From IMG/VR virus record IMGVR_UViG_3300025138_000016: DNA of 64,000 bases; one strand, written 5' to 3'. Each line of letters begins with the position of its first letter. The stretch's first letter is position 1. This DNA comes from a virus. Below are positions 17,332 through 52,053 of the stretch, one piece after another. Below the pieces are notes generated by a model that saw only the letters and a program-made list of their open reading frames with translations, did not search any database and was not told the origin of the DNA. The position numbers and the translations under genes are program-made.

Positions 17332-18069
17332 CTATTTATCATAACGAATGCTTTCAAGGTCTTGTTGTCCGCCAAGAGACCCAATGAGATAACGTCTATC
17401 TTGAGTTCCTTTGTGATAAACAGCATGAGTATATCCTATATTTAGGAAGTATACTTTACCGTGCTCTAGATTAAAGGTATTTTCTTCTTTCTTTAACCAA
17501 AATTTATTCTCAACTCCCTCGTTTCCGTCGATAGGAATAATGAATCTAATAGCATATGTTGTATTATAATCTATATGAGGTGTTATTTGTGCACCAGGTT
17601 TCATCTTAGAATATCTTATTCTTATTACTGGTGCTTCAAATAATTCTGTTATATGTTTATGTAGCTCTGAGTCTTTATAGAACTCAGCTGGCTCACCCCA
17701 GTTATATTCATTTAATAAATGCCCAGCTTTACCTGATAACTTATCTTTTGTTCTTATTTTATTACCTAAACTAGCTGTTAGTTTAGCTCTGCCTTCAGCA
17801 TCTTCTGGTACGTCACTAATAATATCTAATTGTGAGTTAATTATTTGTGGTTCACTTGGTCCTGTTAATGCTATATGATCTATTAGATGAAATGTATCAA
17901 CAGCTACTTGTGCATTAGATAATGTAATACCTGGATGAGCTGTAAAGTTATCAAGCCACTGATCATTATTCTCATTCATAAAACGAGTTATAAGTTCCAT
18001 ATCTGGTTTAAGCTGAGGTATCTCAGCACAGAGAGGATAATCAAACTTTTTGTATTTAAGCTTTTCCAT
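17332..18069 (-). CDS. Asp/Asn beta-hydroxylase-like 2OG-Fe(II) oxygenase
   Basis: RIRYSKMKPGAQITPHID (HxD), R-x-x-IP and THAVYH...RRYL. Confidence 0.8.
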   Translation of the reverse strand: MEKLKYKKFDYPLCAEIPQLKPDMELITRFMNENNDQWLDNFTAHPGITLSNAQVAVDTFHLIDHIALTGPSEPQIINSQLDIISDVPEDAEGRAKLTASLGNKIRTKDKLSGKAGHLLNEYNWGEPAEFYKDSELHKHITELFEAPVIRIRYSKMKPGAQITPHIDYNTTYAIRFIIPIDGNEGVENKFWLKKEENTFNLEHGKVYFLNIGYTHAVYHKGTQDRRYLIGSLGGQQDLESIRYDK

Positions 18070-18817
18070 TAAATGCCCTTTCTATAAAGAGGCCTCCGAT
18101 ATCATATTTATGCCACCTATATGATCTTTTATTTGCATCATGATGAGGTTCATGAAAGCCTTCTCCGCCTGATACTAACCCGACCCATACATCAGAATGA
18201 GGCTTGCCTCCTCTATGTGAATAAGAGTATACTAGCGATCCGAATATTTTAGATATACCTGCTGGAGCTAGCCATAGATATATAACTGCAAATGGATCAA
18301 TGGCTAATAATAATAGCATCCATACTATATTAATTTCCCAGAAATACTTATGCTGTAATTTAAATTTGTTATCTCTCAGGAGATCAGTCATAAACTTAAT
18401 CTTAGGAGATGTGAATACTTGTAAGAAGTGAGCATAAAAATATCCTTTATGCGATGGTGAATGTGGGTCTTTATCTGTATCAGTATACTTATGATGCTCT
18501 CTATGATTAGCTACCCATAATGTTGCTGGTCCAACCATCATTATATTAGCAAAGAATAGCATTACATATTCAAACCAAATAGGGCATTTAAACATTCTAT
18601 GTGAGAAATACCTATGATAGCCCACGCTGATACCTATTGTAACAATAAGTTGGTACATTAGTATACATAAACCCCACTGCCATAAGTTGGCATACAGAGC
18701 CATAGGTATAATAGATAGCATAGCTACTACTTGCCCTATGAATAGGGTAACAGGCATTACTGTTTTACCTAACTGCACATTTCCTCTTCTATTTGTTTTA
18801 ATATTGGACATGGCCAT
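18056..18817 (-). CDS. Membrane fatty-acid (delta-9-type) desaturase
   Basis: Three His boxes (HRYFSH, HREHH, GEGFHEPHH), TDKDPHSP and TM helices. Confidence 0.93.
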   Translation of the reverse strand: MAMSNIKTNRRGNVQLGKTVMPVTLFIGQVVAMLSIIPMALYANLWQWGLCILMYQLIVTIGISVGYHRYFSHRMFKCPIWFEYVMLFFANIMMVGPATLWVANHREHHKYTDTDKDPHSPSHKGYFYAHFLQVFTSPKIKFMTDLLRDNKFKLQHKYFWEINIVWMLLLLAIDPFAVIYLWLAPAGISKIFGSLVYSYSHRGGKPHSDVWVGLVSGGEGFHEPHHDANKRSYRWHKYDIGGLFIERAFNGKA

Positions 18818-28190: not shown

Positions 28191-28799
28191 TTAATCTCCA
28201 GATTGCAACTCTTTTCCAAAATGAAAGATCCTAGAATCAGAGCTATAACTAAACCATCCTGTAGCGATATACTTAACACTCTTTAAGTCAGGTGTACTAG
28301 CATGGTAGTGTGTATAGGCTGCTGGCCAATAAATTAATGAGCCGGCTTCAGGCTTAAATTCTATATCATGCTGAGGGAATATTGTCCTACCACCTTCAGG
28401 TACATCATTTAAATATATCATCCATACCATAAATCTTGAACTGGATAATTCTGAATTACCTTGCTCAGTATGTAAGCCTGTAAAACCTCCACCTGGGTTT
28501 GCTTTTTGAAACTTAATATGTTCTAAGTGATGCCAATGCTCATTATTACCTTCCCAGTCATCAGGCTTATTAGCCTTAATAGCATCACATATTAAATCGG
28601 TTGCAGGCTCTAATGATTGAAAGTTAACAGGAAAGATACTTATATCATTTCTGTGATCATTATTATCAACAAATATTCCTTTTGGTCTTTCGACATCAGG
28701 TGCGAAGTATTCTGATTTTGTTTCAATCGCTGCTATAATATCCTTACAATCTTGTCTTGAGATTGCTTCAGGTATTATTTGTATAAAGTTCTTAGACAT
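28191..28799 (-). CDS. 2OG-Fe(II) oxygenase (prolyl-4-hydroxylase-like)
   Basis: HTE, WMIYLNDV..GG.T.F, WPAAYTHYH and KYIATGW motifs. Confidence 0.9.
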   Translation of the reverse strand: MSKNFIQIIPEAISRQDCKDIIAAIETKSEYFAPDVERPKGIFVDNNDHRNDISIFPVNFQSLEPATDLICDAIKANKPDDWEGNNEHWHHLEHIKFQKANPGGGFTGLHTEQGNSELSSSRFMVWMIYLNDVPEGGRTIFPQHDIEFKPEAGSLIYWPAAYTHYHASTPDLKSVKYIATGWFSYSSDSRIFHFGKELQSGD

Positions 28800-29436
28800 A
28801 ATATTGTAATTGTTCCTCAGTACATATTGCTTTTAGTTCATTACACTTTGAGCATTTCATACAATGCTTCTTATTACCTTCAAAGCATACGTAAATAAGC
28901 TTCTTTAATTGATCAGGTAACATTTGATATTGTTCTTGTTTACTAAGATGGGCAAGAGGTGCTTGAAAAGAGAGAGATAAATCAACTGTTGCAGCTGCTT
29001 TAACATAACCCTCGTACTGTGCTTCACCAAACTCATGGAAGCTATCTCCTGCTGTATCATTAGGTGTTAGTTTACCACCATTATGACCAAAGTAAACAGC
29101 TTGAACTATATTAGTAATAGCTAAGTTAAAAGCTATTGTTGCCCATTGCTGATGCATTGGAGGAAAGCCATTATAATTAAATGTCTTTTTATAATGCTCG
29201 TGTGACGCTTCCCTATTAAACAAATAGCCTGAAGCAGGATTATAATCAGTATGTATAGTTGTTACTTCAACTCCAAGCAGTTTAGCTTTTTGTTGTATAG
29301 TATTTATTTCTCCAGGATTAGATTTAATATGAAAGCAATAAGGTTCATATCCATTCTTCTTTAAATGATATACTAATGCTGTTGATTCAACTCCACCTGA
29401 AAATGGTACTATTATACTATAGTTACGCAGCATCAT
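28792..29436 (-). CDS. QueC-like PP-loop ATPase (second, divergent copy)
   Basis: FSGGVEST PP-loop, APLAHLSK and C-x6-HC-x2-C-x2-C zinc site. Confidence 0.75.
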   Translation of the reverse strand: MMLRNYSIIVPFSGGVESTALVYHLKKNGYEPYCFHIKSNPGEINTIQQKAKLLGVEVTTIHTDYNPASGYLFNREASHEHYKKTFNYNGFPPMHQQWATIAFNLAITNIVQAVYFGHNGGKLTPNDTAGDSFHEFGEAQYEGYVKAAATVDLSLSFQAPLAHLSKQEQYQMLPDQLKKLIYVCFEGNKKHCMKCSKCNELKAICTEEQLQYYV

Positions 29437-29593
29437 TTGATGTATCAGGATGTGAGACATTCATTTCGATATATGCTTTCATAAATCTTCTCACTTCGCG
29501 AGACACAGACGTATCGTTTGCTTTACATGCATGCTTGAAGTCTTTCTTAACTTCTGGGCATACTTTGATAAGCATCTGTACTTTCTCATCCAT
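29423..29593 (-). CDS. Ribbon-helix-helix (Arc/CopG-like) DNA-binding protein (56 aa)
   Basis: Not in the ORF track. MDEKVQMLIKVCPEVKKDFKHACKANDTSVSREVRRFMKAYIE...; beta-alpha-alpha pattern and GAGG RBS. Confidence 0.75.
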   Translation of the reverse strand: MDEKVQMLIKVCPEVKKDFKHACKANDTSVSREVRRFMKAYIEMNVSHPDTSNDAA

Positions 29594-29728: not shown

Positions 29729-31063
29729 GCCCTTACCAGCGTCCGTCTTATCAAAGACGGGCGTATCTTCAACCAAATCATCCTGAGCAGTCTGCTCTAC
29801 ATCATAAAGCTTCATCTTCGCTCTATCCACCCCAACTACAAATCGTCTATTATAATTAGGATCTGAATATCTATTCTTTAACTGCTTAAATAATATCTGA
29901 GCTAAGTCTTCTAGTTCTTCAGTACTTATCATAGCAAACATAAAGTCAGCAGTAGCAGGTAGTCCAAACGATTCAGAAGTATCTTCTAGTCCAACATCAG
30001 ACGATGTATAACCAGATCTAGTTACCTGCGTAGCAGATACAATAGGTACATTAAACTCAACAGCTAAGCCTCTAAGCTCTTCAGCAATAGACTTAACAAT
30101 AGTATATGAGTTAGCACTTGCACCTTTAACTCTAGCACTCATACATATATTAAGATAATCAATATAGATTATATCAGGTATGAATTGCTTCTTAATTTTA
30201 AGCTCTTGAAGTAAATGTCTAAAGTGACCAGCATGAGCGCCTGCAGTAGGATACTCTTTAACAATAAGTTTACCGCTAGTCTTAGAAGATACTCTACCCA
30301 TCTTCTTCTGATAGGCTTCTCTAGGTAGCATTTTTAATTCATCAATAGTAGTATTAAGTAAGTTAGCATCTATACGCTCAGCTATTCGCTCTTCAGCCAT
30401 TTCCATAGTAATGTATAATACATTAAGGCCTTGCATTAGATTAGCAGCAGCACAGTGACACATAAAGAGAGACTTACCTACACCAGTACCAGCCATAGCT
30501 ATATTTAAAGTCTTTCTATTTAAACCGCCTTGAGTGATACGATTAAGATAATCTATATCAAAAGGTACCTTAACTTCTTTCTTCTGATAGAAGTCAAATC
30601 GCTCTTCAGCATCATCAATAAAGTCATGCCCGATATGATTATCAAACGATACAGATAAAGCATCGGATAGCATCTGAGGTAGAGCACCTTTATCTTCATT
30701 AGTAGTACCATCTAAAATTTGTATACCATCCATGATAGCATTATAGACTGCTTTCTCTTGACAGAACTTCTCAGTACTATCTACTACCCACTCAGTATCT
30801 TTCTCTTCAGAGGGTTTAAGTTCTTTAATATAGGTATCAGCTTCTAGAGCTATATCATCAGACATTCCGCCTGTATTAGACATCTCAATAGCTAAAGCGT
30901 CCTGACTAGGACATAGGTTATATTTTTCATGATACTCAGCAATACAATTAAAGAGTTTCTTCTCTACTATGTTACTAAAGTATTCAGCTTTAAGGAAAGG
31001 TATACACTTACGAGTATACTCATCGTTAAATACTAGGTTACTTATTATAGTTTTTTCTATCAT
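29699..31063 (-). CDS. 41: Replicative DNA helicase (T4 gp41-like)
   Basis: AGTGVGKS, YITMEMAEE, IDYLNI, ATQ, SESFGLPATAD and KQLKNRY motifs. Confidence 0.97.
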   Translation of the reverse strand: MIEKTIISNLVFNDEYTRKCIPFLKAEYFSNIVEKKLFNCIAEYHEKYNLCPSQDALAIEMSNTGGMSDDIALEADTYIKELKPSEEKDTEWVVDSTEKFCQEKAVYNAIMDGIQILDGTTNEDKGALPQMLSDALSVSFDNHIGHDFIDDAEERFDFYQKKEVKVPFDIDYLNRITQGGLNRKTLNIAMAGTGVGKSLFMCHCAAANLMQGLNVLYITMEMAEERIAERIDANLLNTTIDELKMLPREAYQKKMGRVSSKTSGKLIVKEYPTAGAHAGHFRHLLQELKIKKQFIPDIIYIDYLNICMSARVKGASANSYTIVKSIAEELRGLAVEFNVPIVSATQVTRSGYTSSDVGLEDTSESFGLPATADFMFAMISTEELEDLAQILFKQLKNRYSDPNYNRRFVVGVDRAKMKLYDVEQTAQDDLVEDTPVFDKTDAGKGLVSKFNDFI

Positions 31064-31653
31064 CGTTTAAAAGACGCATTAAATGAGATTGATATTCTCG
31101 GTTCATCGGTAGCTTTTTGCTCAGGAACACTATGCTCCAACCATCCAGGCCATATAAACAAGTCGCCGCTTTTAGGGTTAAACTTTTGCTCTTGCTCCCA
31201 TCTATTAAGGAAGCCTTCACCGCCTGCCCACCCTTTGATTATAGCGTAGAACGGGCTTCGGATCAAGAAAGGACTAGAATCACTATCAGTGTAGATATAA
31301 ACAGTACCCGAAAGTAAACTTCTACCGTGGTCGTGCCAACAGTGGTGAATACCTTCACTGTAGACATTATACCATGCCTGAATGCCATCAGCATCAAGTT
31401 TAGCAGCGAGGTCCGGGTTAGTATCGAGACAAGTCCCAACATACCCTTTCGCGAATTTGAGGATTTCATTTATTATATCTTCCTTATGTTTAACACCCAC
31501 TAATCCATCTTCATCATAGAATGAAGTATAGTTAGTCTTGTCAGGGGATTTACTATTACGTAATGATAAGATGCTTTGTCGAATTTCTTCTAAGTTAAGA
31601 CTCGACTGCTCCGTCAACATTGGTATCGGAAATAAGTCCTTCATCTTCTTCAC
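31060..31653 (-). CDS. 2OG-Fe(II) oxygenase (TIGR02466-like)
   Basis: WYNVY...HDH..S.LSGTVY, WPGWLEHSV and RISISFN motifs. Confidence 0.88.
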   Translation of the reverse strand: MKKMKDLFPIPMLTEQSSLNLEEIRQSILSLRNSKSPDKTNYTSFYDEDGLVGVKHKEDIINEILKFAKGYVGTCLDTNPDLAAKLDADGIQAWYNVYSEGIHHCWHDHGRSLLSGTVYIYTDSDSSPFLIRSPFYAIIKGWAGGEGFLNRWEQEQKFNPKSGDLFIWPGWLEHSVPEQKATDEPRISISFNASFKR

Positions 31654-37537: not shown

Positions 37538-37565
37538 ATTATAACCTAACGAGAGAGAAAGTCAA
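37538..37565 (-). promoter_or_regulatory. Sigma70-type promoter
   Basis: Minus strand TTGACT-16 nt-TATAAT. Confidence 0.6.
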
Positions 37566-38401
37566 CTATTATTTTGATTTTTATTTCTTAAAGGTCTTAC
37601 CTTCTTTCCGTATGAACCATTATAGTCTAAGCATATTCTATAAAGCAATCGATCTCCTTTTACTTCATTACGTTTATGTAAACTATTCCATTGGTCCATA
37701 AAGACTAAGTCACCTGCTTCCCATTCATGATGATAAACATATCTATCTTGAAAGCACCACTCCATTAAGAAGTTATATGTGTCTTTATCTAAGCCGCCTT
37801 GTATGTAATGGTAAGAGAAGAATAGAGCTCTATCACCATTATAGGGATGAGTATGTACTAAAGGTTTCCATACTCCTTCTGGATATAACTTTTTAGTATC
37901 AAACATAACGAGTTCTTTATCGTCAGGATCTAAGTTATAAAATGTATTGTTTTTGAATTGATAATTACAGACTGTATTATCGAGACGATATTTAACCTCA
38001 GTAGGTAAATCGTCATAGGCTTGTCTCATGTCAACAAAACTAGTAATAGAATCATCACCAGGCTTAACACAATAGAGAGCTACACATGCCTCATCTCCGA
38101 TGAGCTTCCTGCCGTTACCGTTGGAATGCCACCCCAGCTCTTTATCAGCAAAGATGCCAATCTTTTCGCCTTCAACTCTCTTATTGGTAACTCTGAATAG
38201 ACCAGGATACTCTGGATGCATATAAAACCTTTTAGGGTTCATAACATTACCGATCGTATTTGTTATACGTACGATATCTGATTCGTGTAAGTCTTGATCA
38301 CGGAGTATAGTGATATTATAGTTAGGTAATTTCTTACCAAACTTTTTAATCATCTCACTATCATACTCCTTGATGTTTATATCAGGAGTGTATACTTGCA
38401 T
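37562..38401 (-). CDS. TauD/TfdA-family dioxygenase-like protein
   Basis: TSFVDMRQAYDDLP, KPLVHTHP, YHHEWEAGDLVFMD, LHKR and RLLYR; the first metal motif reads WHSN. Confidence 0.85.
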   Translation of the reverse strand: MQVYTPDINIKEYDSEMIKKFGKKLPNYNITILRDQDLHESDIVRITNTIGNVMNPKRFYMHPEYPGLFRVTNKRVEGEKIGIFADKELGWHSNGNGRKLIGDEACVALYCVKPGDDSITSFVDMRQAYDDLPTEVKYRLDNTVCNYQFKNNTFYNLDPDDKELVMFDTKKLYPEGVWKPLVHTHPYNGDRALFFSYHYIQGGLDKDTYNFLMEWCFQDRYVYHHEWEAGDLVFMDQWNSLHKRNEVKGDRLLYRICLDYNGSYGKKVRPLRNKNQNNS

Positions 38402-41926: not shown

Positions 41927-42931
41927 TTACTTAGGATTCGTTGCAACTTTCTTTTTCTTTAACTTCTTTTCATCAGCGGTTGCACTAGCGCCAATAGAAG
42001 CCAGATCAGCTAGTGATCCACCGAATACATATGAACCTACATGCTGTAATTGCATCCAAGGACATAGCCATATATTCATATCTAAATTATTAACCCATTG
42101 ACAGAACATATAATCTTCTGAAAGGTATCTATTAGTATAGGTCTCTCTTGCGATACCAGTACGTTTTTGATCAGCAGATAAGAATGACTTAACTTCGTCA
42201 GGAGTAGCTTCTGGATTAGCTTCAAAGAAAGCTTCCATCTCTTGTTCTAAGTTTTGATACTTATCATCAATAAGAGCATCAAAGTAGGCCATGATCTCTC
42301 TACTGCCATCGAACTCAGCTGTTCTTACATGGTCAGGCTTATACATAAGGTTAGGATAAGCTTCGTTATATCTCTCAAATGTCTCTCTACGAATCATCAT
42401 GAAGCCAGTTCCACCTTCTAATACCTTAGCAGGCATATCTAGTTTAATCTGGTTACCACCCTCTTTAGGATTGAATACATAGTCACCTACATACTTACCT
42501 AACACTTCTGGGTCTTCATCAGCTACACCTTTATCAACAGCATGCTTAATTTTTTCCCATGAAATACATTTCTTAGGATATGGTCCGCACATTACATCAT
42601 GAGGGTTACCATCATTCAGTTCATCATGTCCGTCTATCATTGCTAGCATAGCAATAACATCATTAGCGTTAAAGCCAATATCACTATCAATAAACATCAA
42701 GTGAGTACAATCAGATCTCATAAACTCATCTGCACAATAGTTACGTGCTCTTGTGATAAGAGATTCATTAAAAAGATAGTAGAATTTTATCTCAATGCCG
42801 TAAGCTTTAGCTAGCGCTGATAAGTCGTTAGTCGACTTACAGAACATTCCTGCACATTGACCACCGTACATCGGTGCTGCAACGAAGAGCTTTTTAGTTC
42901 TAAGTTCTTCTATTTGAATTTGTATATTCAT
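41927..42931 (-). CDS. GT-A-fold (GT2-like) glycosyltransferase
   Basis: PMYGG, ESLITRARN, HLMFIDSDI (DxD), GTGFMMI and YLSEDYMFC motifs. Confidence 0.85.
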   Translation of the reverse strand: MNIQIQIEELRTKKLFVAAPMYGGQCAGMFCKSTNDLSALAKAYGIEIKFYYLFNESLITRARNYCADEFMRSDCTHLMFIDSDIGFNANDVIAMLAMIDGHDELNDGNPHDVMCGPYPKKCISWEKIKHAVDKGVADEDPEVLGKYVGDYVFNPKEGGNQIKLDMPAKVLEGGTGFMMIRRETFERYNEAYPNLMYKPDHVRTAEFDGSREIMAYFDALIDDKYQNLEQEMEAFFEANPEATPDEVKSFLSADQKRTGIARETYTNRYLSEDYMFCQWVNNLDMNIWLCPWMQLQHVGSYVFGGSLADLASIGASATADEKKLKKKKVATNPK

Positions 42932-42933
42932 TC

Positions 42934-43374
42934 TTAGCTTTCTACCTTCATTACGATTAAGTCAGCAACGTTAGTTCCAGGTTGGAAGAAACACTCACCG
43001 CCGTTAGCAATTAACTGACCGGAAATAAGACCTTTAAAGCCGGGCTCTAACATGGTAGTAGGTATACTACAACCACCAGCTTGTAATTGCTTATTAACAA
43101 TCATCATTCCGACATGACCTTCTGGTATATTAGCATATACATCAGATGTAAACTCGTACGTTCCTGGGAACATATGATAGATCTCTCTTTCTTTATCAGG
43201 GTCACCTGGGTCAATCATAGTTTGAAGCTCATAAGTCTCTCTAGCGAGCTCTTGATCGTCATTAATAACAAATGGGTTACCTTGATAACCTTTAATTGTC
43301 TTTGCGCTAATTGGTACTGAGTAACTTGTACCTTCGTCTGCACCATTTACTAGTGCTGTTGGATCTACTAACAT
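42934..43374 (-). CDS. Degenerate dCTP deaminase/dUTPase-fold paralogue
   Basis: PGTYEFT, EPGFKG and VADLIV align with the neighbouring dcd-like gene, but the RS and D motifs are lost. Confidence 0.65.
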   Translation of the reverse strand: MLVDPTALVNGADEGTSYSVPISAKTIKGYQGNPFVINDDQELARETYELQTMIDPGDPDKEREIYHMFPGTYEFTSDVYANIPEGHVGMMIVNKQLQAGGCSIPTTMLEPGFKGLISGQLIANGGECFFQPGTNVADLIVMKVES

Positions 43375-43875
43375 TTATTTCTCCTGTTTATATTTTTTAT
43401 CATGCTCTTTGCCTAAACCATAATCACCATCATACATTGAGAGTGATTCAGCCTCGAATAATAAGAACTGACCGAGTCGAGTTCCTTCTTTAGTTTTAAA
43501 TGGTCCAGAAGTGACATGTAGAGCCCCTGCCATTATACCCTGATAACCAGAGTCGTAAAGTCCTGAAGTTAAATAGACACCATTTCTATTCAACGTTGAT
43601 CTAGTAATAACAAAGCCCGCTTCACCTTCAGCTATGCTGACGATATTCTTAAACGTAACTTCGTAAGTACCAATCGGTAAATTGTAGTATCCATCTGCGC
43701 CTGACGCGACTTCAACTGAACCTCTATGCTGCTTCTTATCTTCATCAATAAGAAACTCAGAGTCATTTATAGAAAATATTTTATCTAATCTTAGATCTAC
43801 TGCATTAGGTTGAATGTCTTTAGGTTCGACATTAGTAAGGGAGGATGTATTTTTTTCACTTGCGATATTAATCAT
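43375..43875 (-). CDS. dCTP deaminase/dUTPase family protein
   Basis: IQPNAVDLRL, TRSTLNRNG, YDSGYQG, RLGQF and YDGDYG motifs. Confidence 0.88.
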   Translation of the reverse strand: MINIASEKNTSSLTNVEPKDIQPNAVDLRLDKIFSINDSEFLIDEDKKQHRGSVEVASGADGYYNLPIGTYEVTFKNIVSIAEGEAGFVITRSTLNRNGVYLTSGLYDSGYQGIMAGALHVTSGPFKTKEGTRLGQFLLFEAESLSMYDGDYGLGKEHDKKYKQEK

Positions 43876-44510
43876 TATATACTACCAAAATAATAAGGGT
43901 TTTCTTTAGTACTAAAACTACTTATATGATATAGTTCATTCCTCTCAAAGTCAATCCTGAAAGCCTTATTAGGTTCAGTAGGACTACTTCCTGGGAACTT
44001 AGTACTGGATATATTTAGCTGATCATCTATGAACATAGGTGATATTTCATTACGAAAAATAAATATTTCACCTTCGTCATATTGAAGACAACTATAAGTA
44101 CCATCAACATTATCCAATTGTCGATAGCCATGAGAAATAGCTTCATGTATTAAAGCTGTATCCCATTCAAGGTCAGATTCATATGTCTTCTTTAGAGACT
44201 TAATACAATCTTCCTTTATAATACCGTTGTGCCATAGAAGATCTGCTCCTTCCCTTCGTACGCTAGGGTGGATACTTTCTATGGCCGAAGCTGCGGTAGT
44301 AGGTGCCTGGATGTGTGCTACATAATACATCCCTCGTTCGGTCTCCAGACCGTCTAATGAGAATGGCCCCATACATTTTCGCTTCGTAACCAATTCTTTC
44401 GTTTTCAGACTATATTCCGATAACGAATGTGAGTGCTGACCTCTGTAAGCATTAAGTTCAGCTAACTCTAATAGTTTATCTAATTCTCTACTGCCAAATA
44501 TTGCGCACAT
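43875..44510 (-). CDS. Stand-alone class II (Ntn) glutamine amidotransferase
   Basis: MCAIFG (N-terminal Cys nucleophile), YRG, AHIQAPT, HP, WHNGII and DT motifs; directly downstream of queC. Confidence 0.88.
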   Translation of the reverse strand: MCAIFGSRELDKLLELAELNAYRGQHSHSLSEYSLKTKELVTKRKCMGPFSLDGLETERGMYYVAHIQAPTTAASAIESIHPSVRREGADLLWHNGIIKEDCIKSLKKTYESDLEWDTALIHEAISHGYRQLDNVDGTYSCLQYDEGEIFIFRNEISPMFIDDQLNISSTKFPGSSPTEPNKAFRIDFERNELYHISSFSTKENPYYFGSI

Positions 44511-44513
44511 AAT

Positions 44514-45272
44514 TTAAATATATTGTTGAGTTATTTTAATCCAATCAAAGCCTTCTACATATTCAATAGGATCGGCTCGATCAGCTTTTACAAAGTTCAT
44601 GATTCTTTCGGCACAAGTTGGACAGGTACCGCACGATTTACCATCTACTGGATTATAACATGAAATCGTATTAGAAAGCAACTCGAATTGTTCCATTTCA
44701 ATCGCAAGATCAATCTCTTGCTTTTTACTTAACTGGCTAAATGGAGCTACTATCTCAACACTATGCGTTCTATTTTGTTCAGCAACGTTATTTAGGCTAT
44801 CTACAAAGCGCTGAGACGTATCCCAATACCCATACTCGTCATGAACTTGAAGTCCAGTAAACACATGAGAGGCTTTCTTTACTTCAGCTAAAGACATAGT
44901 CATCGATAACATAATTAAATTCCTAAAAGGTACGTAAGTAGGTGGTTGCGGATCACCTAATACATCTTGTATAGTAGGCATAGTGATATCAGTACCACCA
45001 ATATTAGCTGACATCGGTCTAGCTATATCACCTAGTACATTTAAGTCTAATATCCTATGACGTATACCTAACTTATTACATAAAGCAAAAGCTCTTTCTA
45101 ACTCTACTCTCTGCTTCTGACCATAGTCATAGCTTACAGCAGACACTCGCTCTGCACCGTACTTGGCGACCAGTAACATAGTTACTACAGATGAATCTAA
45201 ACCACCTGAGAGCACAGCTAATACATTCTTATCTGTATTCGGTAGACTATCTAATGCTTCTTGTAATGTCAT
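44514..45272 (-). CDS. queC: 7-cyano-7-deazaguanine (preQ0) synthase
   Basis: LSGGLDSS, YDYGQKQ, TYVPFRN, YWD and SCY...CGTCPTCAER motifs. Confidence 0.96.
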   Translation of the reverse strand: MTLQEALDSLPNTDKNVLAVLSGGLDSSVVTMLLVAKYGAERVSAVSYDYGQKQRVELERAFALCNKLGIRHRILDLNVLGDIARPMSANIGGTDITMPTIQDVLGDPQPPTYVPFRNLIMLSMTMSLAEVKKASHVFTGLQVHDEYGYWDTSQRFVDSLNNVAEQNRTHSVEIVAPFSQLSKKQEIDLAIEMEQFELLSNTISCYNPVDGKSCGTCPTCAERIMNFVKADRADPIEYVEGFDWIKITQQYI

Positions 45273-45463
45273 GTTAGTAATTGTTTCACTCCGAGTACGT
45301 AATTCTCTGCCGCATCTTCTGCCCATGCTTCTGATTTGCCAGGATACATTTCTTGTTTAACTTCAGCACCATCTACAAAGAAGGTACACCCATATACTCC
45401 GCCTTCAAAGATAACTCTCGCCATCTTATTAGCATCAACGTATTCGCTTAAAAATTGAGCCAT
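45269..45463 (-). CDS. Small conserved phage protein
   Basis: KSEAWAEDAAENYVLG motif; coupled to its neighbours on both sides. Confidence 0.75.
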   Translation of the reverse strand: MAQFLSEYVDANKMARVIFEGGVYGCTFFVDGAEVKQEMYPGKSEAWAEDAAENYVLGVKQLLT

Positions 45464-46395
45464 TATTGCCTCGCTGTTTTTCTATGAGGCTCATCGCTAT
45501 CAACTAAACCTAATGCATAAGCATCTATAAGGTCTTGCGACGTCGCTCTAATAGGGTTAATATCAATACCACCACGTCTAGTATATAGACATGCTACTAA
45601 AATTTCTGTATCGTCAGCAAGCATATCTTTTAATCTCTTAAATACACACTCACAAATCTCTTCATGGAAGTGATTCTCTTTTCTCATACTAACAATATAA
45701 CGCATTAACGATTCAGGCGTTACACAATCTTCACCACTAATGTGGATATAGATATCACCCCAATCAGGCTGGTTAGTAATCCTACAGTTAGATCTTAGAG
45801 CACTAGAGGTAACTTGGAAAGGCATAAAGCCTAACATAGGAGCTCTATCTAAAGTATCAGGGCTCTCTTCGTACTCAATGAACTCAATATCTTCTACTTC
45901 AATAAGAGATTCTAATCTTACAAAGTGACCAGTAATAGGAGCTACAGGTAGCTCGTTCTGCTCATCATAATGAAACGATACATCTATCTCACATTCCAAA
46001 GCTTCAGTTAAGTCTGTAGTAATCTTTCTCTCTACATTTCGTATAGCATTAGTAATGGTACTACCCATCTTATGCATATTGTATGAGTTCATATATAACT
46101 TAAGTGACTTAGACTCAACAATACATTCACTATCAGAAGGGTATACTAATTTAACTACACCGCTAACAGGAAAGCCATTCTCTAATAGGAATGATACTTC
46201 ATAACAATTCCAAGAGTCAAAGCCTACGAATGGTAAGTCATCGTCATCTATCTTATATTCTGTTCTATTAAGTACTCTAGGTACAGGTACAAGTAAACTA
46301 CTATCAGCTCTATCAGGAGTAACATAAGGGTTAACTATGCTCCCGTCACCAGCTTTACCTAAGTGCTTACTTACAATTCTATCTAATTCTTTCAT
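45463..46395 (-). CDS. queF: NADPH-dependent preQ0 reductase, bimodular YqcD type
   Basis: WNCYEVS, VESKSLKLY QueF motif, LRSNCRITNQPDWG (catalytic Cys/Asp), HFHEE and YTRRGGIDINP. Confidence 0.95.
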   Translation of the reverse strand: MKELDRIVSKHLGKAGDGSIVNPYVTPDRADSSLLVPVPRVLNRTEYKIDDDDLPFVGFDSWNCYEVSFLLENGFPVSGVVKLVYPSDSECIVESKSLKLYMNSYNMHKMGSTITNAIRNVERKITTDLTEALECEIDVSFHYDEQNELPVAPITGHFVRLESLIEVEDIEFIEYEESPDTLDRAPMLGFMPFQVTSSALRSNCRITNQPDWGDIYIHISGEDCVTPESLMRYIVSMRKENHFHEEICECVFKRLKDMLADDTEILVACLYTRRGGIDINPIRATSQDLIDAYALGLVDSDEPHRKTARQ

Positions 46396-46923
46396 TTAAC
46401 TAATTACCTTTAAAACTTGATCTACTCTTTCTCTTACTGAGCCTGATACCGTAATATGTTCTCTAGGTAACTCAGTAATAAAGCCTTCAAATAGATCGCT
46501 TATTTCATCTCTGAAGTCAAGACTTATAGATCTTACTCCGTCATCAACTATATCAAACTCAGGTCTAATATAAAAAATATAATCATAACTACTAACTAAT
46601 CTATCATAGATAGCTTTAACCTTATCTAAAGTCTTCTTACTTACTTTATTATGATTATGTAAGTATGCAGTATAAACTAATCCATCTAAAGCAGTACGAT
46701 CAGTTAACATATGATCATACATAAACACATTAGCGATATGCTTCTGCATAATAAGTATCTGAGTTAGATCAGAACCAGCTTCATTTATATCAAAGCCCAT
46801 CTCTTTAATCTCTCTCGTCACTTCGTCACAAACAGTATACTGACTTAGCATCCTCTCAGATCTAAGAGCATTAAGTAAAGTAGTCTTACCTACTGATTGC
46901 GCTCCAGTAATACCTATTCTCAT
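46396..46923 (-). CDS. P-loop nucleotide-kinase-like protein (AAA_28/NadR-like)
   Basis: ITGAQSVGKTT, TDRTALD, DDGVRS and SGSVRER motifs. Confidence 0.85.
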   Translation of the reverse strand: MRIGITGAQSVGKTTLLNALRSERMLSQYTVCDEVTREIKEMGFDINEAGSDLTQILIMQKHIANVFMYDHMLTDRTALDGLVYTAYLHNHNKVSKKTLDKVKAIYDRLVSSYDYIFYIRPEFDIVDDGVRSISLDFRDEISDLFEGFITELPREHITVSGSVRERVDQVLKVIS

Positions 46924-47429
46924 AATTTACCTACAAAAAATATTTGCCATAACTTAACAGCCTCATGCCTTAAGTCTTCAGTTAATTCATCTACAGTAGT
47001 ACCTTTATGAATAATATAATCACTAAACAGTTCAGGAGTACCACCGTCAACAGTATCATCTACTCTATGAATAAGTACACCAGTACTTTCTAATCCAAGC
47101 TCAATAGCTTTCTTCTGAGGATGAATACCTTTTAATTCAGGATACTTAAATATGTCACCAGGATGCACATTATAAATCTTAGCTTTAATCTCAGAAGCTT
47201 TAAGAAGTCTCCAATACCCATGTAAGGTAACTAGAGTATCTTCATGAAGGTTCTTTAATAAGCATTCTATTTCTTTAGCAGGAGATATCTGAACAGAGCT
47301 CAGTCTTTTATCCCAATCAGTACGTACTTCATCACAAAGAACGAGATCAGGCTCAATGCCTATTTTATCTATAACCTCAGCTAACTCTTTACCCGAGTTG
47401 CTGAACAACGCTACCCATTTCTTCATCAA
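46920..47429 (-). CDS. PurN-like formyltransferase (DpdN-like)
   Basis: ALFSNSG, LHGYWRL, YNVHPG, YPELKG and STGVLIHRVDDTVDGG motifs. Confidence 0.88.
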   Translation of the reverse strand: MMKKWVALFSNSGKELAEVIDKIGIEPDLVLCDEVRTDWDKRLSSVQISPAKEIECLLKNLHEDTLVTLHGYWRLLKASEIKAKIYNVHPGDIFKYPELKGIHPQKKAIELGLESTGVLIHRVDDTVDGGTPELFSDYIIHKGTTVDELTEDLRHEAVKLWQIFFVGKL

Positions 47430-48216
47430 TATTTGCCCTGAATTTCATTATATTATAGAAGACTTTCGCTGCATTTTCAACAGGTTCTTCCATTAGTTCA
47501 AATAGCTTAACAGACTCTTTATCTTCTAGTCCGAATACACCATCAGTTTCAACATAATCTATACCCATCATACCATGTATAACAGGATTAGACGTATCAA
47601 TAGTATCGATGAAGTCATAGTCTTTACCTTTATAGAGAGCAAACTCCTGAGGTAAACCACAACCTAATAAATGATGAGGCTTATTATAATTAATAGCCTT
47701 CTCTTTAATAAGTAGATCAATTAAATGCTTTCTACCTTTCATCCAGCTATGATACTTAGTCGGCTCATCAGGATATATTTCCTCGAACCAACTATAATCA
47801 AATGAGATAGCAATAATGTCTGCCTCACTAGCCATAAACTTATAACAGTCAACAATCTCTTGCTCTGTCTTACCTTGAACAACTCCAATCTTAGACCCTT
47901 TTAAGTCTTCGTACTTAGACATCCAGCTGTTCCAATTAGCGATAGTACCATCAATGTCTTCTAATACATCTGGTACTATATAAGCAGAAGGTTTGAGCTG
48001 CTTACACCATGCCGCAAAGTCATCAGCATCGAATGCTGTACCTAGTTCAAAGATACTATTATCTAATATAATATATCTACCAGCTTTCTTCGCATCAATA
48101 AAATGATTATAGTAAGTTCTATTCTCTTCAAACAGATGAACTAAAGCATAATCGTAATCAGTTACTTTTGATACTTGCTTTATAATCTCTAAAGGTGCTT
48201 CGTGGGCTACTCTCAT
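47389..48216 (-). CDS. TGT-fold 7-deazaguanine transglycosylase-like protein (divergent DpdA-like)
   Basis: ILDNSIFE, VPDVL, GVVQG, HHLLG and IDTSNP map onto TGT catalytic motifs; no CxCxxC zinc site; embedded among que genes. Confidence 0.75.
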   Translation of the reverse strand: MRVAHEAPLEIIKQVSKVTDYDYALVHLFEENRTYYNHFIDAKKAGRYIILDNSIFELGTAFDADDFAAWCKQLKPSAYIVPDVLEDIDGTIANWNSWMSKYEDLKGSKIGVVQGKTEQEIVDCYKFMASEADIIAISFDYSWFEEIYPDEPTKYHSWMKGRKHLIDLLIKEKAINYNKPHHLLGCGLPQEFALYKGKDYDFIDTIDTSNPVIHGMMGIDYVETDGVFGLEDKESVKLFELMEEPVENAAKVFYNIMKFRANIDEEMGSVVQQLG

Positions 48217-48428
48217 TCAAAATATCCTTCTAATACCTCGATCTTATCATGCAGCTCTGCAATCTTACCGAGTTCGCCGTCTATTGTTTCTAGTAAGTCA
48301 GGATGCTCAGCAACACCGACTCCTTTCTGCATTAAATTTTCAACATTAATAATATGTTGACCGATAACAGAAGTATAATATTGCTTCTGTACACTAATAA
48401 TTTTATCTCTCATGTCCTTATCTAACAT
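48213..48428 (-). CDS. Conserved phage hypothetical protein
   Basis: H..NVE.L....VGVAEHPD...TI..EL pattern. Confidence 0.8.
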   Translation of the reverse strand: MLDKDMRDKIISVQKQYYTSVIGQHIINVENLMQKGVGVAEHPDLLETIDGELGKIAELHDKIEVLEGYFE

Positions 48429-49183
48429 TATTTACTCGCAAATTGTTGCTGTATCATAATGTCGTCAAAGAACTCTTTCTTAACATCAGGCTCGTTAAAT
48501 CTACCTTTAAGTACAGTAGTCTGCGTTAAAGATGAATGAGCCATAATGCCTCTGTTCTCACAACAACCATGCGTAGCGTGAATATATACAGCTAGGTCTT
48601 CAGTACCAGTAGCTGCATGCAGCTCTTTAACGATAGCATTACATAGTTCTTCTTGTAATGTACCTCTACGAGCTACCCATTGAGCGATTCTTGTATACTT
48701 AGATAAACCAATAACTTTACCATTAGGTATAATACCAATATAGGCAGTTCCTACAACAGGTTGATGATGATGAGAGCAAACAGATCTTAGTTCAGATCTT
48801 ACTACTAACATACCTTCATACTTGTCAGGTCCATCATTAGGGAATGCAGTCGCAGCAGGCTTATCAGTATACCTACCAGCCATAAGCTCATTGATATACA
48901 TCTTAGCTAGACGTCTAGGAGTACCCATCGCGTTAGGATCGTTCCTCCAATCAATTAAAAGTCTATGCAGTACTTCTTCGAAAGCTTCTGCTACTTCATC
49001 AATAAGATTCTCTCTTCCAGCGTCAGTCATTATCTGAGCTATATTATCATTAGACCAGGCACGTAGACCGTCTTTATGTATTAGGTTCCAATACAATTCA
49101 TGCACTTTATTCTCGCTTGAATCATGTTGATGATAAGTATCGTTTTTTATTACAGGAGCAGTTCTTGCTTTAATATTTTCCAT
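48428..49183 (-). CDS. folE: GTP cyclohydrolase I
   Basis: TPRRLAKMY, SVCSHHHQP, VIGLSKYTR, LQEEL and HGCCENRG motifs. Confidence 0.96.
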   Translation of the reverse strand: MENIKARTAPVIKNDTYHQHDSSENKVHELYWNLIHKDGLRAWSNDNIAQIMTDAGRENLIDEVAEAFEEVLHRLLIDWRNDPNAMGTPRRLAKMYINELMAGRYTDKPAATAFPNDGPDKYEGMLVVRSELRSVCSHHHQPVVGTAYIGIIPNGKVIGLSKYTRIAQWVARRGTLQEELCNAIVKELHAATGTEDLAVYIHATHGCCENRGIMAHSSLTQTTVLKGRFNEPDVKKEFFDDIMIQQQFASK

Positions 49184-49206
49184 ATGTATATTATATCCTA
49201 TTTTAC

Positions 49207-49662
49207 TTATGAATTCAAGTCTCTTTGATAGATAGCGCTATTAGCTCCGTGCTCAGCTACCTCGCAGGATTCAACCCAGCATCTACCATCTGACTTATCG
49301 TTAATTAATTTCTGAGCAAAGTTAAAAGCATGCTCAGCAAACTTCTCGGCACCTACGCCATCGAATATTCTAATCTCAGCTAGACCTATCTCTTCTAGAT
49401 GCTCTAACTCGCTTCGCATAGGGTCAGCTTTATCGACAACAGTCTTATGATCAAAGCTATCTTCGAGCCATCTCTTTAGGTCTTTTAGACCGCCAAAGTC
49501 AACTGCCCAGTTCTTATTATCAAGCTCATGACAACCGAATTTAAAAGTAAAGGCAAGGCTATAACCGTGCAGTAAATGACAATGCGAATGATCAGCATTA
49601 GGTTGACGGAACACTGCGCTTAAGCCAATGTTATGTCCGTAGTGTTTAGTACTATAGTACAT
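49207..49662 (-). CDS. queD: 6-carboxy-5,6,7,8-tetrahydropterin synthase
   Basis: SHCHLLHGY, VDFGGLK, FDH, AE and VAEHGANSAIY motifs. Confidence 0.93.
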   Translation of the reverse strand: MYYSTKHYGHNIGLSAVFRQPNADHSHCHLLHGYSLAFTFKFGCHELDNKNWAVDFGGLKDLKRWLEDSFDHKTVVDKADPMRSELEHLEEIGLAEIRIFDGVGAEKFAEHAFNFAQKLINDKSDGRCWVESCEVAEHGANSAIYQRDLNS

Positions 49663-50125
49663 CTTTATCCTCCCACCAGAAGTTTATCCATCTCTCGTCT
49701 TCATTACGAGAAATAGTTTTATGAAAAAAATCAGGCATAATATCCTGATCCGTATTTAAATATAGACAAGCAATGGATAAGTTCTCTTTAGGAAAGTCTC
49801 CAAACGTTTCTATAACTTGCGACAGAGTAGTCCCTGTATCAATTAGGTCATCAACTAATAATATATTTTGCCCTGCATTCATATCAGCAGGTATAGTTTC
49901 ATTGATCTCTTTATCCTCAAAGTCTCTTGTTGACCAAGTTAATGGTACAAGAGGTATCTCAAGAATGTATGATAGTCTAACCGCGAGTGGAAGTCCACCT
50001 CTTGCTAATCCAACTATCTTATCGTAATTAGTTCCTACAGCATTTATATTATTTACTAACGAAGTTATACCTTCATCGAAATCCTTTTTACTGTACTCTA
50101 TTTCTTTATTATCTTTTCCAAACAT
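49652..50125 (-). CDS. Type I phosphoribosyltransferase (xanthine/guanine PRTase-like)
   Basis: VGLARGGL, LLVDDLIDTGTT (PRPP motif), PDF and WINFWWE. Confidence 0.92.
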   Translation of the reverse strand: MFGKDNKEIEYSKKDFDEGITSLVNNINAVGTNYDKIVGLARGGLPLAVRLSYILEIPLVPLTWSTRDFEDKEINETIPADMNAGQNILLVDDLIDTGTTLSQVIETFGDFPKENLSIACLYLNTDQDIMPDFFHKTISRNEDERWINFWWEDKDVL

Positions 50126-50649
50126 TATTCATACCAAGTTACTAGCACGACTCTATTACCCTTTAGAACCTTACTGACTGAATGCTGAACATTCGGTCCG
50201 TATGCTATAGTTTCACCAACCTTCTGCTTAACGATGACGGGTATAATCTCATCGCCTGGCTTATAATCTTTCTCGTTATATCTGTTTAAGACAGAGCCAT
50301 CTTCGGGGACTTGCATATCAGATTTATAGTGAGGTTCATATACTATAATATCTCCACCATCAAGATCATTTGCCTCGACGAGTGTTATTGCAGTCTTCTT
50401 AACTACATCGTTATTATCAGAATGCTTACGAGTAAACGCTCCTTCGATATAGTCTAAGAAATATTGAGAATGAATCTTAAGTTCATCAGTCTCTAATTCC
50501 ATTATAAATTTATCACTTGGTACAATACGTTGAGTAAGATAGTGCAAGTTATAAAATCTCTTTATAGTAACTATTGGTAGAGAGTAATACAACTCTTTCA
50601 TCTTATTATGTACGCTCTCTTCAAGCATACCTTCGCTTTTATACACCAA
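50125..50649 (-). CDS. 2OG-Fe(II) oxygenase-like protein
   Basis: FTRKHSD (HxD), LDGG and QHSVSKV.KGNRVVLVTW. Confidence 0.8.
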   Translation of the reverse strand: MVYKSEGMLEESVHNKMKELYYSLPIVTIKRFYNLHYLTQRIVPSDKFIMELETDELKIHSQYFLDYIEGAFTRKHSDNNDVVKKTAITLVEANDLDGGDIIVYEPHYKSDMQVPEDGSVLNRYNEKDYKPGDEIIPVIVKQKVGETIAYGPNVQHSVSKVLKGNRVVLVTWYE

Positions 50650-51526
50650 TTAAATTACCCCATAAGTAAGTATGAACTCTAGCAGCTACATTATAGCCTC
50701 TCTTAAAGGCTTCAGCAGCAACGTCTCCATCTACTAGCTTCTGACCTTCTACAGTAGCACCAACAGGCATTATCCAAATAGGCCAATGCACGTGATGGTC
50801 TCTGAAAGCTTCAATAGTATCTTCGAGCTCTTTCCATGTCTCAGGCTTACCATCTACAACAAACTTAAGTTGCCCTGTGTTAGTAAACATCTGATACTTC
50901 TCTACAACTTCAGGACGAATAGCTCTCTTAGTCGTTTCTCCTGATACGTTAAATAATTTAGGGCTACATGATATAAATAATTCACTGCCCCATACATCTC
51001 TATACTCTTGCCAGAACTCTACTACCTCTGGTCTTATTGTTTGAGTACCATTAGTTTCATACGTTACAAACCTAGGATAGTCTCTTTCGTTTATCCAATG
51101 CTTCATCATATTCATACTACATATCTGAGCATGCTTCATAAAAGGCTCACCGCCAGTAAAGCACATATGTCTATCATTCCATTTACCATTATTCCATTTA
51201 TTAGTAAATCTTTCTCTTACCTTATCAGCTATCTCTACAGCTGTACCATTACGTTGTAAGTGCTTAAACTTCTTAGACCATGAATAAGAACTATCACATC
51301 CGAATTCAAATACAGGAAGCTCTTCCATATTCTTAATACCTATAAGATCAATATCTTTATAAGGTAGTTGATAGGTGTCTGGGTTAGTAGGATCTTCTTG
51401 ACCGAATCCATTACATTGTAAGTTACATAGAAAGAATCTCATCCATGCAGTCGGTCGTCCAGTATATTGACCTTCACCTTGAATAGAGTCGAATATCTCT
51501 GAGTAGTTATAAGTCTGCTCTGTCAT
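50639..51526 (-). CDS. queE: 7-carboxy-7-deazaguanine synthase (radical SAM)
   Basis: SEIFDSIQGEG, CNLQC...CDS (expanded Cys motif), FTGGEP, ETNG, SPKL and RVHTYLWG. Confidence 0.95.
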   Translation of the reverse strand: MTEQTYNYSEIFDSIQGEGQYTGRPTAWMRFFLCNLQCNGFGQEDPTNPDTYQLPYKDIDLIGIKNMEELPVFEFGCDSSYSWSKKFKHLQRNGTAVEIADKVRERFTNKWNNGKWNDRHMCFTGGEPFMKHAQICSMNMMKHWINERDYPRFVTYETNGTQTIRPEVVEFWQEYRDVWGSELFISCSPKLFNVSGETTKRAIRPEVVEKYQMFTNTGQLKFVVDGKPETWKELEDTIEAFRDHHVHWPIWIMPVGATVEGQKLVDGDVAAEAFKRGYNVAARVHTYLWGNLIGV

Positions 51527-52053
51527 AATTCGTCCATTACTTGCTGAACCCATTTTATTACTCTAGGGTAAGTTAATGTAGGTTCATTATCTTCATCAAT
51601 AGGTAGACCGAAGAAGGTTGATTCATCAGCTAAGCCGTTAGATTGCTCCCAACGATAGCCATCCGTAGATGTTAGTCCTATTAGCCTTCCACCATTCTGT
51701 ACAACAACACCAGCTAACATACCAAGACCATCTACAAAGTTATTAGCATAGCCAACTTGATCACCTAGCCCATATAGCGCTACAGTCTGACCAGTAAAGT
51801 CAATTGCTTCAAATTTAGATATAGAGTTGTTCCAGTCGTCTGAGTATTCACCATAGGTATCTAATCTAGGTTCACACCAAGTAGGTATTCCGAGTATAAG
51901 GAGATCTGCTTTCCAGTCTTCTGGCTTAGCATCTTCGACGTTTATTATGTCTTTTGAATGAAAGGCGTTTAGGATCACATCACCAACTAGTTTAGTGAAA
52001 CCAGTTTCGGTACCATAAATTAGCTTTACGCCTATCTCTGAGTTGAGACTCAT
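51523..52053 (-). CDS. Long-chain flavodoxin
   Basis: YGTETGFT, LGIPTW, YGLGDQVGY..NFVDG and F.GLPIDEDNE..LT..RV..W motifs. Confidence 0.93.
   Translation of the reverse strand: MSLNSEIGVKLIYGTETGFTKLVGDVILNAFHSKDIINVEDAKPEDWKADLLILGIPTWCEPRLDTYGEYSDDWNNSISKFEAIDFTGQTVALYGLGDQVGYANNFVDGLGMLAGVVVQNGGRLIGLTSTDGYRWEQSNGLADESTFFGLPIDEDNEPTLTYPRVIKWVQQVMDEL

Follow-up and report, generated by a model that had tools for sequence, protein, structure and literature searches.

A DpdA3/DpdN gene cluster in an uncultured marine T4-like phage, predicted to replace genomic guanine with a formylated 7-deazaguanine

Positions 41927 to 52053 of the IMG/VR virus record IMGVR_UViG_3300025138_000016 (64,000 nucleotides analysed, hereafter the window) hold a dense cluster of 7-deazaguanine genes that very probably constitutes a DpdA3/DpdN-type module, with 7-(formylamino)methyl-7-deazaguanine (fdPreQ1) as the predicted base replacing guanine in the genome. 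The gene pattern in related loci further suggests that the bases may be exchanged on the nucleotide pool rather than in finished DNA. We assign this full reading, an fdPreQ1 module including pool-level exchange, a probability of roughly 0.5. The region had already been singled out in an earlier reading of the DNA, referred to here as the original prediction.

The central enzyme of the cluster, DpdA3, aligns in tblastn searches over 95% of its length with DpdA of Flavobacterium phage immuto_2-6A (YP_010114477; 55% identity, E = 1e-81), and over 95% of the length with gp056 of Campylobacter phage CP220 (42% identity, E = 1e-46). Both proteins, which are founding DpdA3 members (Cui 2023, PMC10516641), are also recovered by the DpdA3 profile. 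Sequence and profile searches against the PDB and the Pfam tRNA-guanine transglycosylase (TGT) family gave no match, and a fold search alone succeeded. The AlphaFold (AF2) model, with a predicted local distance difference test (pLDDT) score of 92.4, is a TGT-like TIM barrel, and its best 50 Foldseek matches are all TGT or archaeosine TGT (arcTGT) enzymes (E = 3e-8 to 2e-6, template modelling (TM) scores of 0.52-0.63). Three invariant aspartates, D52, D83 and D207, are placed by the model at the ends of barrel strands, and no zinc motif or cysteine cluster is present. The gene is co-encoded with those for 7-deazaguanine synthesis.

The enzymes expected to set the identity of the final base retain their diagnostic residues. 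In DpdN the Asn-His-Asp triad of PurN is kept as N87, H89 and D128, invariant across 22 sequences, and the DpdN profile matches glycinamide ribonucleotide (GAR) transformylases over the full length of DpdN (E ~1e-13), including the N-terminal SxxGS loop. DpdN is 38% identical to its immuto counterpart and occupies the same slot after DpdA3, the arrangement of Cui's group 1, in which it accompanies DpdA and the FolE-to-QueF genes. QueF, 42% identical to immuto QueF, carries the NADPH motif ESKSLKLY at residue 94 and the catalytic Cys204 within SNCR; its bimodular build, this cysteine and the QueF motif E(S/L)K(S/A)hK(L/Y)(Y/F/W) mark it as a nitrile reductase and not QueF-L. QueE is recognised by PHROG 2076, with weak NCBIfam QueE matches at the N-terminus and no Pfam match. 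A flavodoxin, present in just the two closest related loci, is the likely reductant for this radical S-adenosylmethionine (SAM) enzyme. DNA of immuto_2-6A contains 345,000 fdPreQ1 per 10^6 nucleotides and no deoxyguanosine (dG), corresponding to 100% replacement (Cui 2023, PMC10516641). Taken together, homology and synteny with immuto, the product of that phage and the intact DpdN and QueF motifs lead us to predict fdPreQ1 as the product here, in agreement with the original prediction, which had named formyl-dPreQ1 as the minimum product.

Comparison with characterised phages places the cluster in a known context. Homologues of DpdA3, DpdN, the kinase, QueF, FolE, QueD and the phosphoribosyltransferase (PRTase) are shared with immuto_2-6A, as are the order FolE..DpdA3-DpdN-kinase-QueF, the PRTase upstream and a nucleoside triphosphate (NTP) pyrophosphatase within the cluster. 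The two differ in that PolA lies beside the immuto cluster, whereas the window phage is T4-like with a family-B polymerase, and in that the immuto pyrophosphatase belongs to PRA-PH while that of the window has a dUTPase fold. Beyond the immuto set, the window encodes the flavodoxin, a 2-oxoglutarate (2OG) oxygenase, a QueC-linked glutaminase and a degenerate pyrophosphatase paralogue. CP220 (Firehammervirus) likewise has DpdA3 followed by an AAA_28 kinase (35% identity), with a phosphohydrolase gene upstream, but lacks DpdN, QueF and a PRTase of the window type; in its hydrolase, an HD domain is joined to an AAA_33 kinase. The product reported for CP220 is the amide dADG, replacing all G (via Cui 2023, PMC10516641). 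Cellulophaga phage phiST shares DpdA3 (per Cui 2023), a Gpt-type PRTase (31.5% identity) and, next to the cluster, a dUTPase/MazG. Its DpdA3 has diverged too far to be picked up by tblastn, the phage has neither the window-type kinase nor QueC, QueF or DpdN, using the decarboxylase DpdL, and dDG replaces all of its G (Cui 2023, PMC10516641). Judged by its genes, the window cluster belongs to an already described gene set for guanine replacement and is not a new base-making system; the novelty suggested in the original prediction does not hold, since the family is widespread and one member is already characterised.

We found 4351 DpdA3 homologues at E<=1e-3 and at least 549 confirmed IMG/VR stretches, and DpdA3/DpdN clusters are common in aquatic viromes. 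It is therefore likely that complete replacement of guanine is in wide use against restriction, and that sequencing chemistry has a blind spot there. Counts across related loci refer to 80 retrieved loci and 2 reference loci (82 in total) chosen by similarity to one DpdA3; pyrophosphatase counts use all 82 and kinase-slot counts 69. DpdN accompanies DpdA3 in 75 of the 82, and QueF and FolE are each present in 69.

The most recurrent accessory function is an NTP pyrophosphatase, present in 66 of the 82 DpdA3 loci, most of the remaining negatives being truncated contigs. In the window this enzyme is encoded by the gene that the original prediction had called dcd, a label implying a dCTP deaminase. 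The family alignment reveals dUTPase-type motifs and, after motif III, the sequence L-H-V, with His at the position of the catalytic deaminase Glu, and among the NCBIfam models PRK02253, an archaeal-type dUTPase, fits best. Having the dUTPase motifs without the deaminase Glu, the protein is, by its motifs, a deoxynucleoside triphosphate (dNTP) pyrophosphatase and not a deaminase. Its degenerate paralogue also occurs in two loci without the dcd gene (L007 and L009). Across the loci the function is supplied by several families: 35 loci have an immuto-type PRA-PH gene immediately upstream of DpdA3, 11 have a T4-type PRA-PH gene and 18 a dUTPase-fold gene, and the three are mutually exclusive, no locus carrying two. 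In two further loci (L032, L033) MazG and a canonical dUTPase separate FolE from DpdA3, CP220 has its HD domain, and phiST has dUTPase/MazG (Cui 2023, PMC10516641). Full-length matches to the dUTPase-fold subtype occur in just four cultured phages, all of which have a DpdA3-like gene. The two genes adjoin in RHph_I1_18, and in D479 and Ahp1 they are separated solely by a T4 gp1-type deoxynucleoside monophosphate (dNMP) kinase. RHph_I1_18 had been considered as a control in which the dUTPase-fold gene occurs without que genes, and was dropped once a profile search showed the adjoining DpdA3-like domain; it therefore counts as evidence of linkage.

A kinase and a PRTase recur alongside the pyrophosphatase. 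Of the 69 loci, 53 have the AAA_28 kinase between dpdN and queF; that of the window is 36% identical to the immuto kinase. Profile comparison with the PDB relates it to the ribosylnicotinamide-kinase (RNK) domain of NadR (1.5e-5) and to deoxynucleoside kinase (dNK; 1e-3), and its relatives in cultured phages lie in Campylobacter and immuto phages, with more distant ones in Streptomyces phages. On five contigs whose cluster lacks it, the kinase did not turn up at another position, which is weak evidence as these are fragments, and a search for gp1-type kinases (DNMK) in kinase-less and kinase-bearing T4-like contigs, 7-85% complete, found none. The PRTase profile matches the purine PRTase 1vdm (8e-27) and E. 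coli XGPRT (1e-13), placing the enzyme in the guanine/xanthine (Gpt) family; it conserves the DD..D.G.T and W..W(E) motifs, and among cultured phages its closest relatives come from phiST and immuto, which both have DpdA3. In hypoxanthine-guanine phosphoribosyltransferase (HGPRT), the invariant Asp of DDxxD(S/T)G acts on N7, an atom missing in 7-deazapurines. PRTase counts from tblastn across loci are lower bounds, the divergent PRTase of L074 having been missed.

These enzymes can be arranged into a pathway. FolE, QueD and QueE, the last with its own flavodoxin, would convert GTP to 7-carboxy-7-deazaguanine (CDG), from which QueC, with ammonia from the adjacent N-terminal nucleophile (Ntn) glutaminase, would form preQ0, to be reduced by QueF to the free base preQ1. 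As a minimal TGT barrel, DpdA3 would exchange guanine for preQ1, and DpdN would formylate the aminomethyl group. On the nucleotide pool, the dUTPase-fold pyrophosphatase would cut dGTP to dGMP, DpdA3 would swap the base on the mononucleotide, the PurN-like DpdN would formylate the 5'-phospho-deoxyribosyl amine, and the kinase would re-phosphorylate the product for incorporation by the polymerase; the Gpt-type PRTase would turn the released guanine into GMP and thence GTP for FolE. Should this apply, DpdA3 would be not a DNA transglycosylase but the first TGT-fold enzyme to act on a free deoxyguanosine nucleotide, and replacement would be pre-replicative, for which we see about even odds.

The logic has precedents. 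Phage T4 makes hydroxymethylcytosine (hmC) DNA with the gp56 dCTPase, the gp42 dCMP hydroxymethylase and the gp1 dNMP kinase, and the S-2L (Z-genome) route uses MazZ, DatZ and PurZ. The likeness is one of logic only: a dNTPase depletes the canonical dNTP and yields the dNMP, which is modified and re-phosphorylated, affording complete replacement. The enzymes themselves are unrelated, and in the window the pool step is proposed from gene content, with a TGT-fold base exchanger as the putative modifier.

On the gene pattern, we slightly favour the nucleotide-pool route over the published post-replicative one, because the near-universal pyrophosphatase is drawn from unrelated families and the kinase is recurrent, its slot being served by AAA_28 or, in D479 and Ahp1, by the gp1-type dNMP kinase. 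The gene order DpdA3-DpdN-kinase also matches the proposed order of reactions. GAR, the substrate of GAR transformylase, is a ribose-5-phosphate amine, so the likeness of DpdN to that enzyme speaks for the same route. Natural DpdA3-QueF fusions of 531-586 aa (P0121-P0124; L085:8001-9707), found in metagenomic phages whose clusters have neither DpdN nor the kinase, imply free preQ1 as the likely incoming base, and the predicted product of those clusters is dPreQ1. Each of the three DpdA3 phages whose DNA was tested had all of its G replaced, and attempts to reconstitute DpdA3 activity on DNA did not succeed (Cui 2023, PMC10516641), both of which we count for the pool route. A literature search on DpdA3 returned Cui 2023 only, and no DpdA3 follow-up surfaced among the papers listed in broader searches on 7-deazaguanine in phages.

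Several observations weigh against exchange on the pool. To our knowledge, all tested TGT and DpdA enzymes act on a polynucleotide and none on a mononucleotide. In 16 of the 69 loci the kinase is absent and an ORF of family DUF3310 occupies its slot, phiST has the PRTase without the kinase, and CP220 has the kinase without the PRTase; neither enzyme can therefore be obligatory. Large phages commonly carry NTP pyrophosphatases and kinases for housekeeping, and phages phiM7 and DLP_6 carry dUTPase or MazG without que genes. The loci are phylogenetically related and were chosen via one DpdA3, so the counts do not represent independent events, and enzyme substrate specificity cannot be read from sequence.

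The same genes would also fit the route proposed in Cui 2023 (PMC10516641), where post-replicative exchange was inferred from the fold: replication with dGTP, followed by DpdA3 exchange and DpdN formylation in finished DNA, again giving fdPreQ1. The PRTase and kinase would then recycle guanine to GTP, the glutaminase would feed QueC, and the dUTPase-fold enzyme would be a housekeeping dUTPase. We regard this route as quite possible, a little short of an even chance. The TGT fold and family precedent speak for it, as do the existing kinase-less and PRTase-less clusters and a PRTase of the guanine/xanthine family that keeps the invariant Asp of DDxxD(S/T)G; recycling would be stoichiometrically sensible, since each exchange uses one GTP and frees one guanine. 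It leaves, however, no role for a near-universal pyrophosphatase repeatedly swapped among unrelated families or for a gp1-type dNMP kinase beside DpdA3-like genes, and the cluster kinase resembles nucleoside and dNMP kinases, not guanylate kinase. Moreover, DpdA3 activity on DNA was never demonstrated, and the other base-exchanging DpdAs modify at most 30% of G (Cui 2023, PMC10516641). Net charge and isoelectric point did not discriminate DNA binding, every cluster protein being acidic.

The original prediction had gone further, casting the accessory enzymes (oxygenase, amidotransferase, PRTase, kinase and glycosyltransferase) as tailors that decorate fdPreQ1 into an undescribed hydroxylated, amidated or glycosylated analogue. 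We consider such decoration unlikely. The PRTase, kinase and NTP pyrophosphatase also occur in immuto, whose product is plain fdPreQ1, and the glutaminase is found in phages that make dPreQ1; such genes seem to serve precursor supply and the nucleotide pool rather than the making of a new base. In co-occurrence and synteny searches the PRTase, kinase, pyrophosphatase and glutaminase recur with DpdA3 or QueC, and homologues of the glycosyltransferase occur without them. The glycosyltransferase gene abuts the cluster, which had favoured a decorating role, and its GT-A fold stands: sequence and profile searches against the PDB gave no match, while a fold search with the model (pLDDT 69, DSD motif) matched STIV A197 and many GT-A enzymes. 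Homologues with 49-58% identity adjoin gp45 in two phages in which neither DpdA3 nor QueC was found, phiM7 of Sinorhizobium and DLP_6 of Stenotrophomonas, so the gene is probably a resident neighbour of gp45 and not, as had been supposed, a member of the modification module.

The 2OG oxygenase is thereby the sole remaining tailoring candidate among the accessory genes. It lies inside the operon with no assigned role and an intact facial triad (H76-x-D78...H156...R166, invariant), and in three related loci (L007-L009) a TauD-family dioxygenase sits between queF and queC, both of which favour decoration of the base. Yet the oxygenase is restricted to the 8 closest loci, and at least four other 2OG-type oxygenases elsewhere in the window give the picture of mobile auxiliary genes. 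A profile search of the cluster oxygenase against the PDB found no relative. In all, the window encodes at least five 2OG/Fe(II)-type oxygenases (17332-18069, 28191-28799, 31060-31653, 37562-38401 and the cluster copy at 50125-50649), the types comprising Asp/Arg hydroxylase, Oxy_3, Oxy_5 and TauD besides the cluster copy.

The amidotransferase of the original prediction is indeed a class-II glutaminase: M1-C2, R23-G24, N95-G96 and D117 are invariant, and its profile matches GlmS (5e-5) and PurF. Its supposed base-tailoring role is not upheld, as the gene is tied to one QueC subtype and occurs in dPreQ1 phages. It comes after QueC in all 19 loci with a QueC at least 55% identical to that of the cluster and was never found after the other QueC subtype in related loci. 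Previously unannotated homologues, 36-37% identical, adjoin QueC in the KVP40-like Vibrio phages nt-1, phi-Grn1 and phi-ST2, which differ from the window in using DpdA2, with <1% of G modified. DNA of phi-Grn1 and phi-ST2 contains dPreQ1/mdPreQ1 and zero deoxyarchaeosine (dG+) (Cui 2023, PMC10516641). Because of this strict pairing and its presence in dPreQ1 phages with zero dG+, the glutaminase is best read as the ammonia donor of QueC rather than a G+ synthase. QueC itself probably starts at an internal Met at about position 45275.

A different role for the pair, as a split Gat-QueC that turns preQ0 into the archaeosine base and yields DNA with dG+ alone or beside fdPreQ1, strikes us as very improbable. 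In phage 9g, as in Crenarchaeota, Gat-QueC is a fusion with the glutaminase N-terminal to QueC, and in 9g it leads to dG+; the window glutaminase belongs to the same class II, with the catalytic Cys in common, and is strictly paired with QueC. Here, though, the genes are separate, with QueC first and the glutaminase second, the unfused pair of phi-Grn1 and phi-ST2 goes with dPreQ1/mdPreQ1 and 0 dG+, and a bimodular QueF and DpdN always accompany the QueC-glutaminase pair. Three features, a pyrophosphatase that is almost always present yet swapped between unrelated families, a kinase slot shared by two or three families of kinase and a glutaminase bound to a single QueC subtype, form a pattern that turns the question of how 100% 7-deazaguanine is reached into direct enzyme-assay questions; if exchange on nucleotides is true, it would add an enzyme activity not seen before and open a way to make 7-deaza-dNTPs enzymatically.

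A second QueC-like gene lies at 28792-29460 (minus strand), beside a gp41-like helicase. This very divergent QueC-family PP-loop gene (PF06508, 40 bits) adjoins the 2OG-Fe(II) oxygenase at 28191-28799 (minus strand; PF13640, 35.7 bits), is unrelated to the cluster QueC and does not occur in the 80 related loci. It was tried as the alternative QueC subtype of other clusters and rejected on comparison, as it is not of that subtype.

The tightly packed run of que and dpdA-type genes between gp46/def and gp45 is as originally described, and all 17 open reading frames (ORFs) are confirmed (Table 1). They abut or overlap, with intergenic gaps of -58 to +23 nt from the flavodoxin to the glycosyltransferase gene. 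The names given earlier to the flavodoxin, PRTase, queD, folE, formyltransferase, kinase, queF and queC are backed by Pfam scores above or near the cut-offs. On one side the cluster is flanked by gp47/gp46 (Mre11/Rad50-like) and def, on the other by gp45, gp44, gp62 and regA, and gp43 is a family-B polymerase ~50% identical to cyanomyovirus polymerases; by these genes the source phage is an uncultured marine T4-like myovirus. A megablast search with the 10-kb region as query returned no match among 50,697 phage records. About 20 related loci are T4-like with the same def...gp45 placement. Although the cluster was correctly placed, the view that def and the glycosyltransferase had been inserted with it was not sustained; def is a resident of the gp46-gp45 interval, as the glycosyltransferase appears to be.

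Table 1. Predicted genes of the cluster, with coordinates in the window and the basis of each assignment
Gene or product	Coordinates	Strand	Basis
Flavodoxin	51523..52053	-	PF00258 E 1e-7; 31-nt overlap with queE
QueE, 7-carboxy-7-deazaguanine synthase	50639..51553	-	phrog_2076 E 2e-56
2OG-Fe(II) oxygenase	50125..50649	-	PF13640 20.9 bits, under cut-off; HxD...H...R
Gpt-type 6-oxopurine phosphoribosyltransferase	49652..50125	-	PF00156 E 1e-17
QueD	49207..49662	-	PTPS/QueD PF01242 E 9e-13
FolE, GTP cyclohydrolase I	48428..49183	-	PF01227 E 3e-38
71-aa ORF	48213..48428	-	phrog_1811 E 8e-19; in 5 related loci
DpdA3, zinc-less TGT-fold base-exchange enzyme (275 aa)	47389..48216	-	55% identity to immuto DpdA
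DpdN, PurN-like formyltransferase	46920..47429	-	PF00551 (Formyl_trans_N) E 1e-10
P-loop kinase, AAA_28 / NadR-RNK / dNK type	46396..46923	-	PF13521 E 4e-19
QueF, bimodular nitrile reductase	45463..46395	-	QueF_N E 6e-30, QueF E 2e-19
64-aa ORF	45269..45463	-	no family match; in 4 related loci
QueC	44514..45326	-	PF06508 E 2e-50, match from residue 35
Stand-alone class-II (Ntn) glutaminase (211 aa)	43875..44510	-	catalytic motifs, GlmS/PurF profile
dUTPase-fold dNTP pyrophosphatase (earlier 'dcd')	43375..43875	-	PF22769, PF00692, PRK02253 1e-27
Degenerate pyrophosphatase paralogue, catalytic motifs lost	42934..43374	-	alignment; weak PRK02253 match
GT-A fold glycosyltransferase (334 aa)	41927..42931	-	DSD motif; Foldseek

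The wider set of loci contains several variants. The small DUF3310 ORF (e.g. L016:11298-11561) occupies the dpdN-queF slot of all 16 kinase-less loci and is also present in two loci that end before queF (18 in total), and no locus has both this ORF and the kinase. RHph_I1_18 encodes a fusion protein (EVB91_073, L086:3308-4576) in which the DpdA3-like domain is followed C-terminally by DUF3310. Given this exclusive use of the slot and the fusion, DUF3310 seems to be a partner of DpdA3. Unannotated, divergent DpdA3-like genes (profile E of 1e-12 to 4e-4) were detected in four cultured phages, Vibrio D479 (L087), Aeromonas Ahp1_CNU-2021 (L088), Vibrio Bakedbeans (L089) and Rhizobium RHph_I1_18 (L086), whose DNA may carry an uncharacterised guanine modification. 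A DNMK-family kinase directly follows the DpdA3-like gene in D479 and Ahp1 with scores above the Pfam cut-off, and the DNMK match of Bakedbeans falls below it. FolE is seen in the fetched region of three of the four, with none there for Bakedbeans, and RHph_I1_18 has no QueC. In the DpdN-less cluster of L032, QueC is immediately followed by a gene of family DUF1599 ('nucleotide modification associated domain 1'; L032:12876-13223) and by ThyX.

Elsewhere in the window, all on the minus strand, a 953-aa ORF (21136-23997) has an N-terminal cytidylyltransferase-like domain as its sole Pfam match, and a sodium:solute symporter family protein (2404-3825) and a fatty-acid desaturase family protein (18056-18817) look like products of auxiliary metabolic genes.

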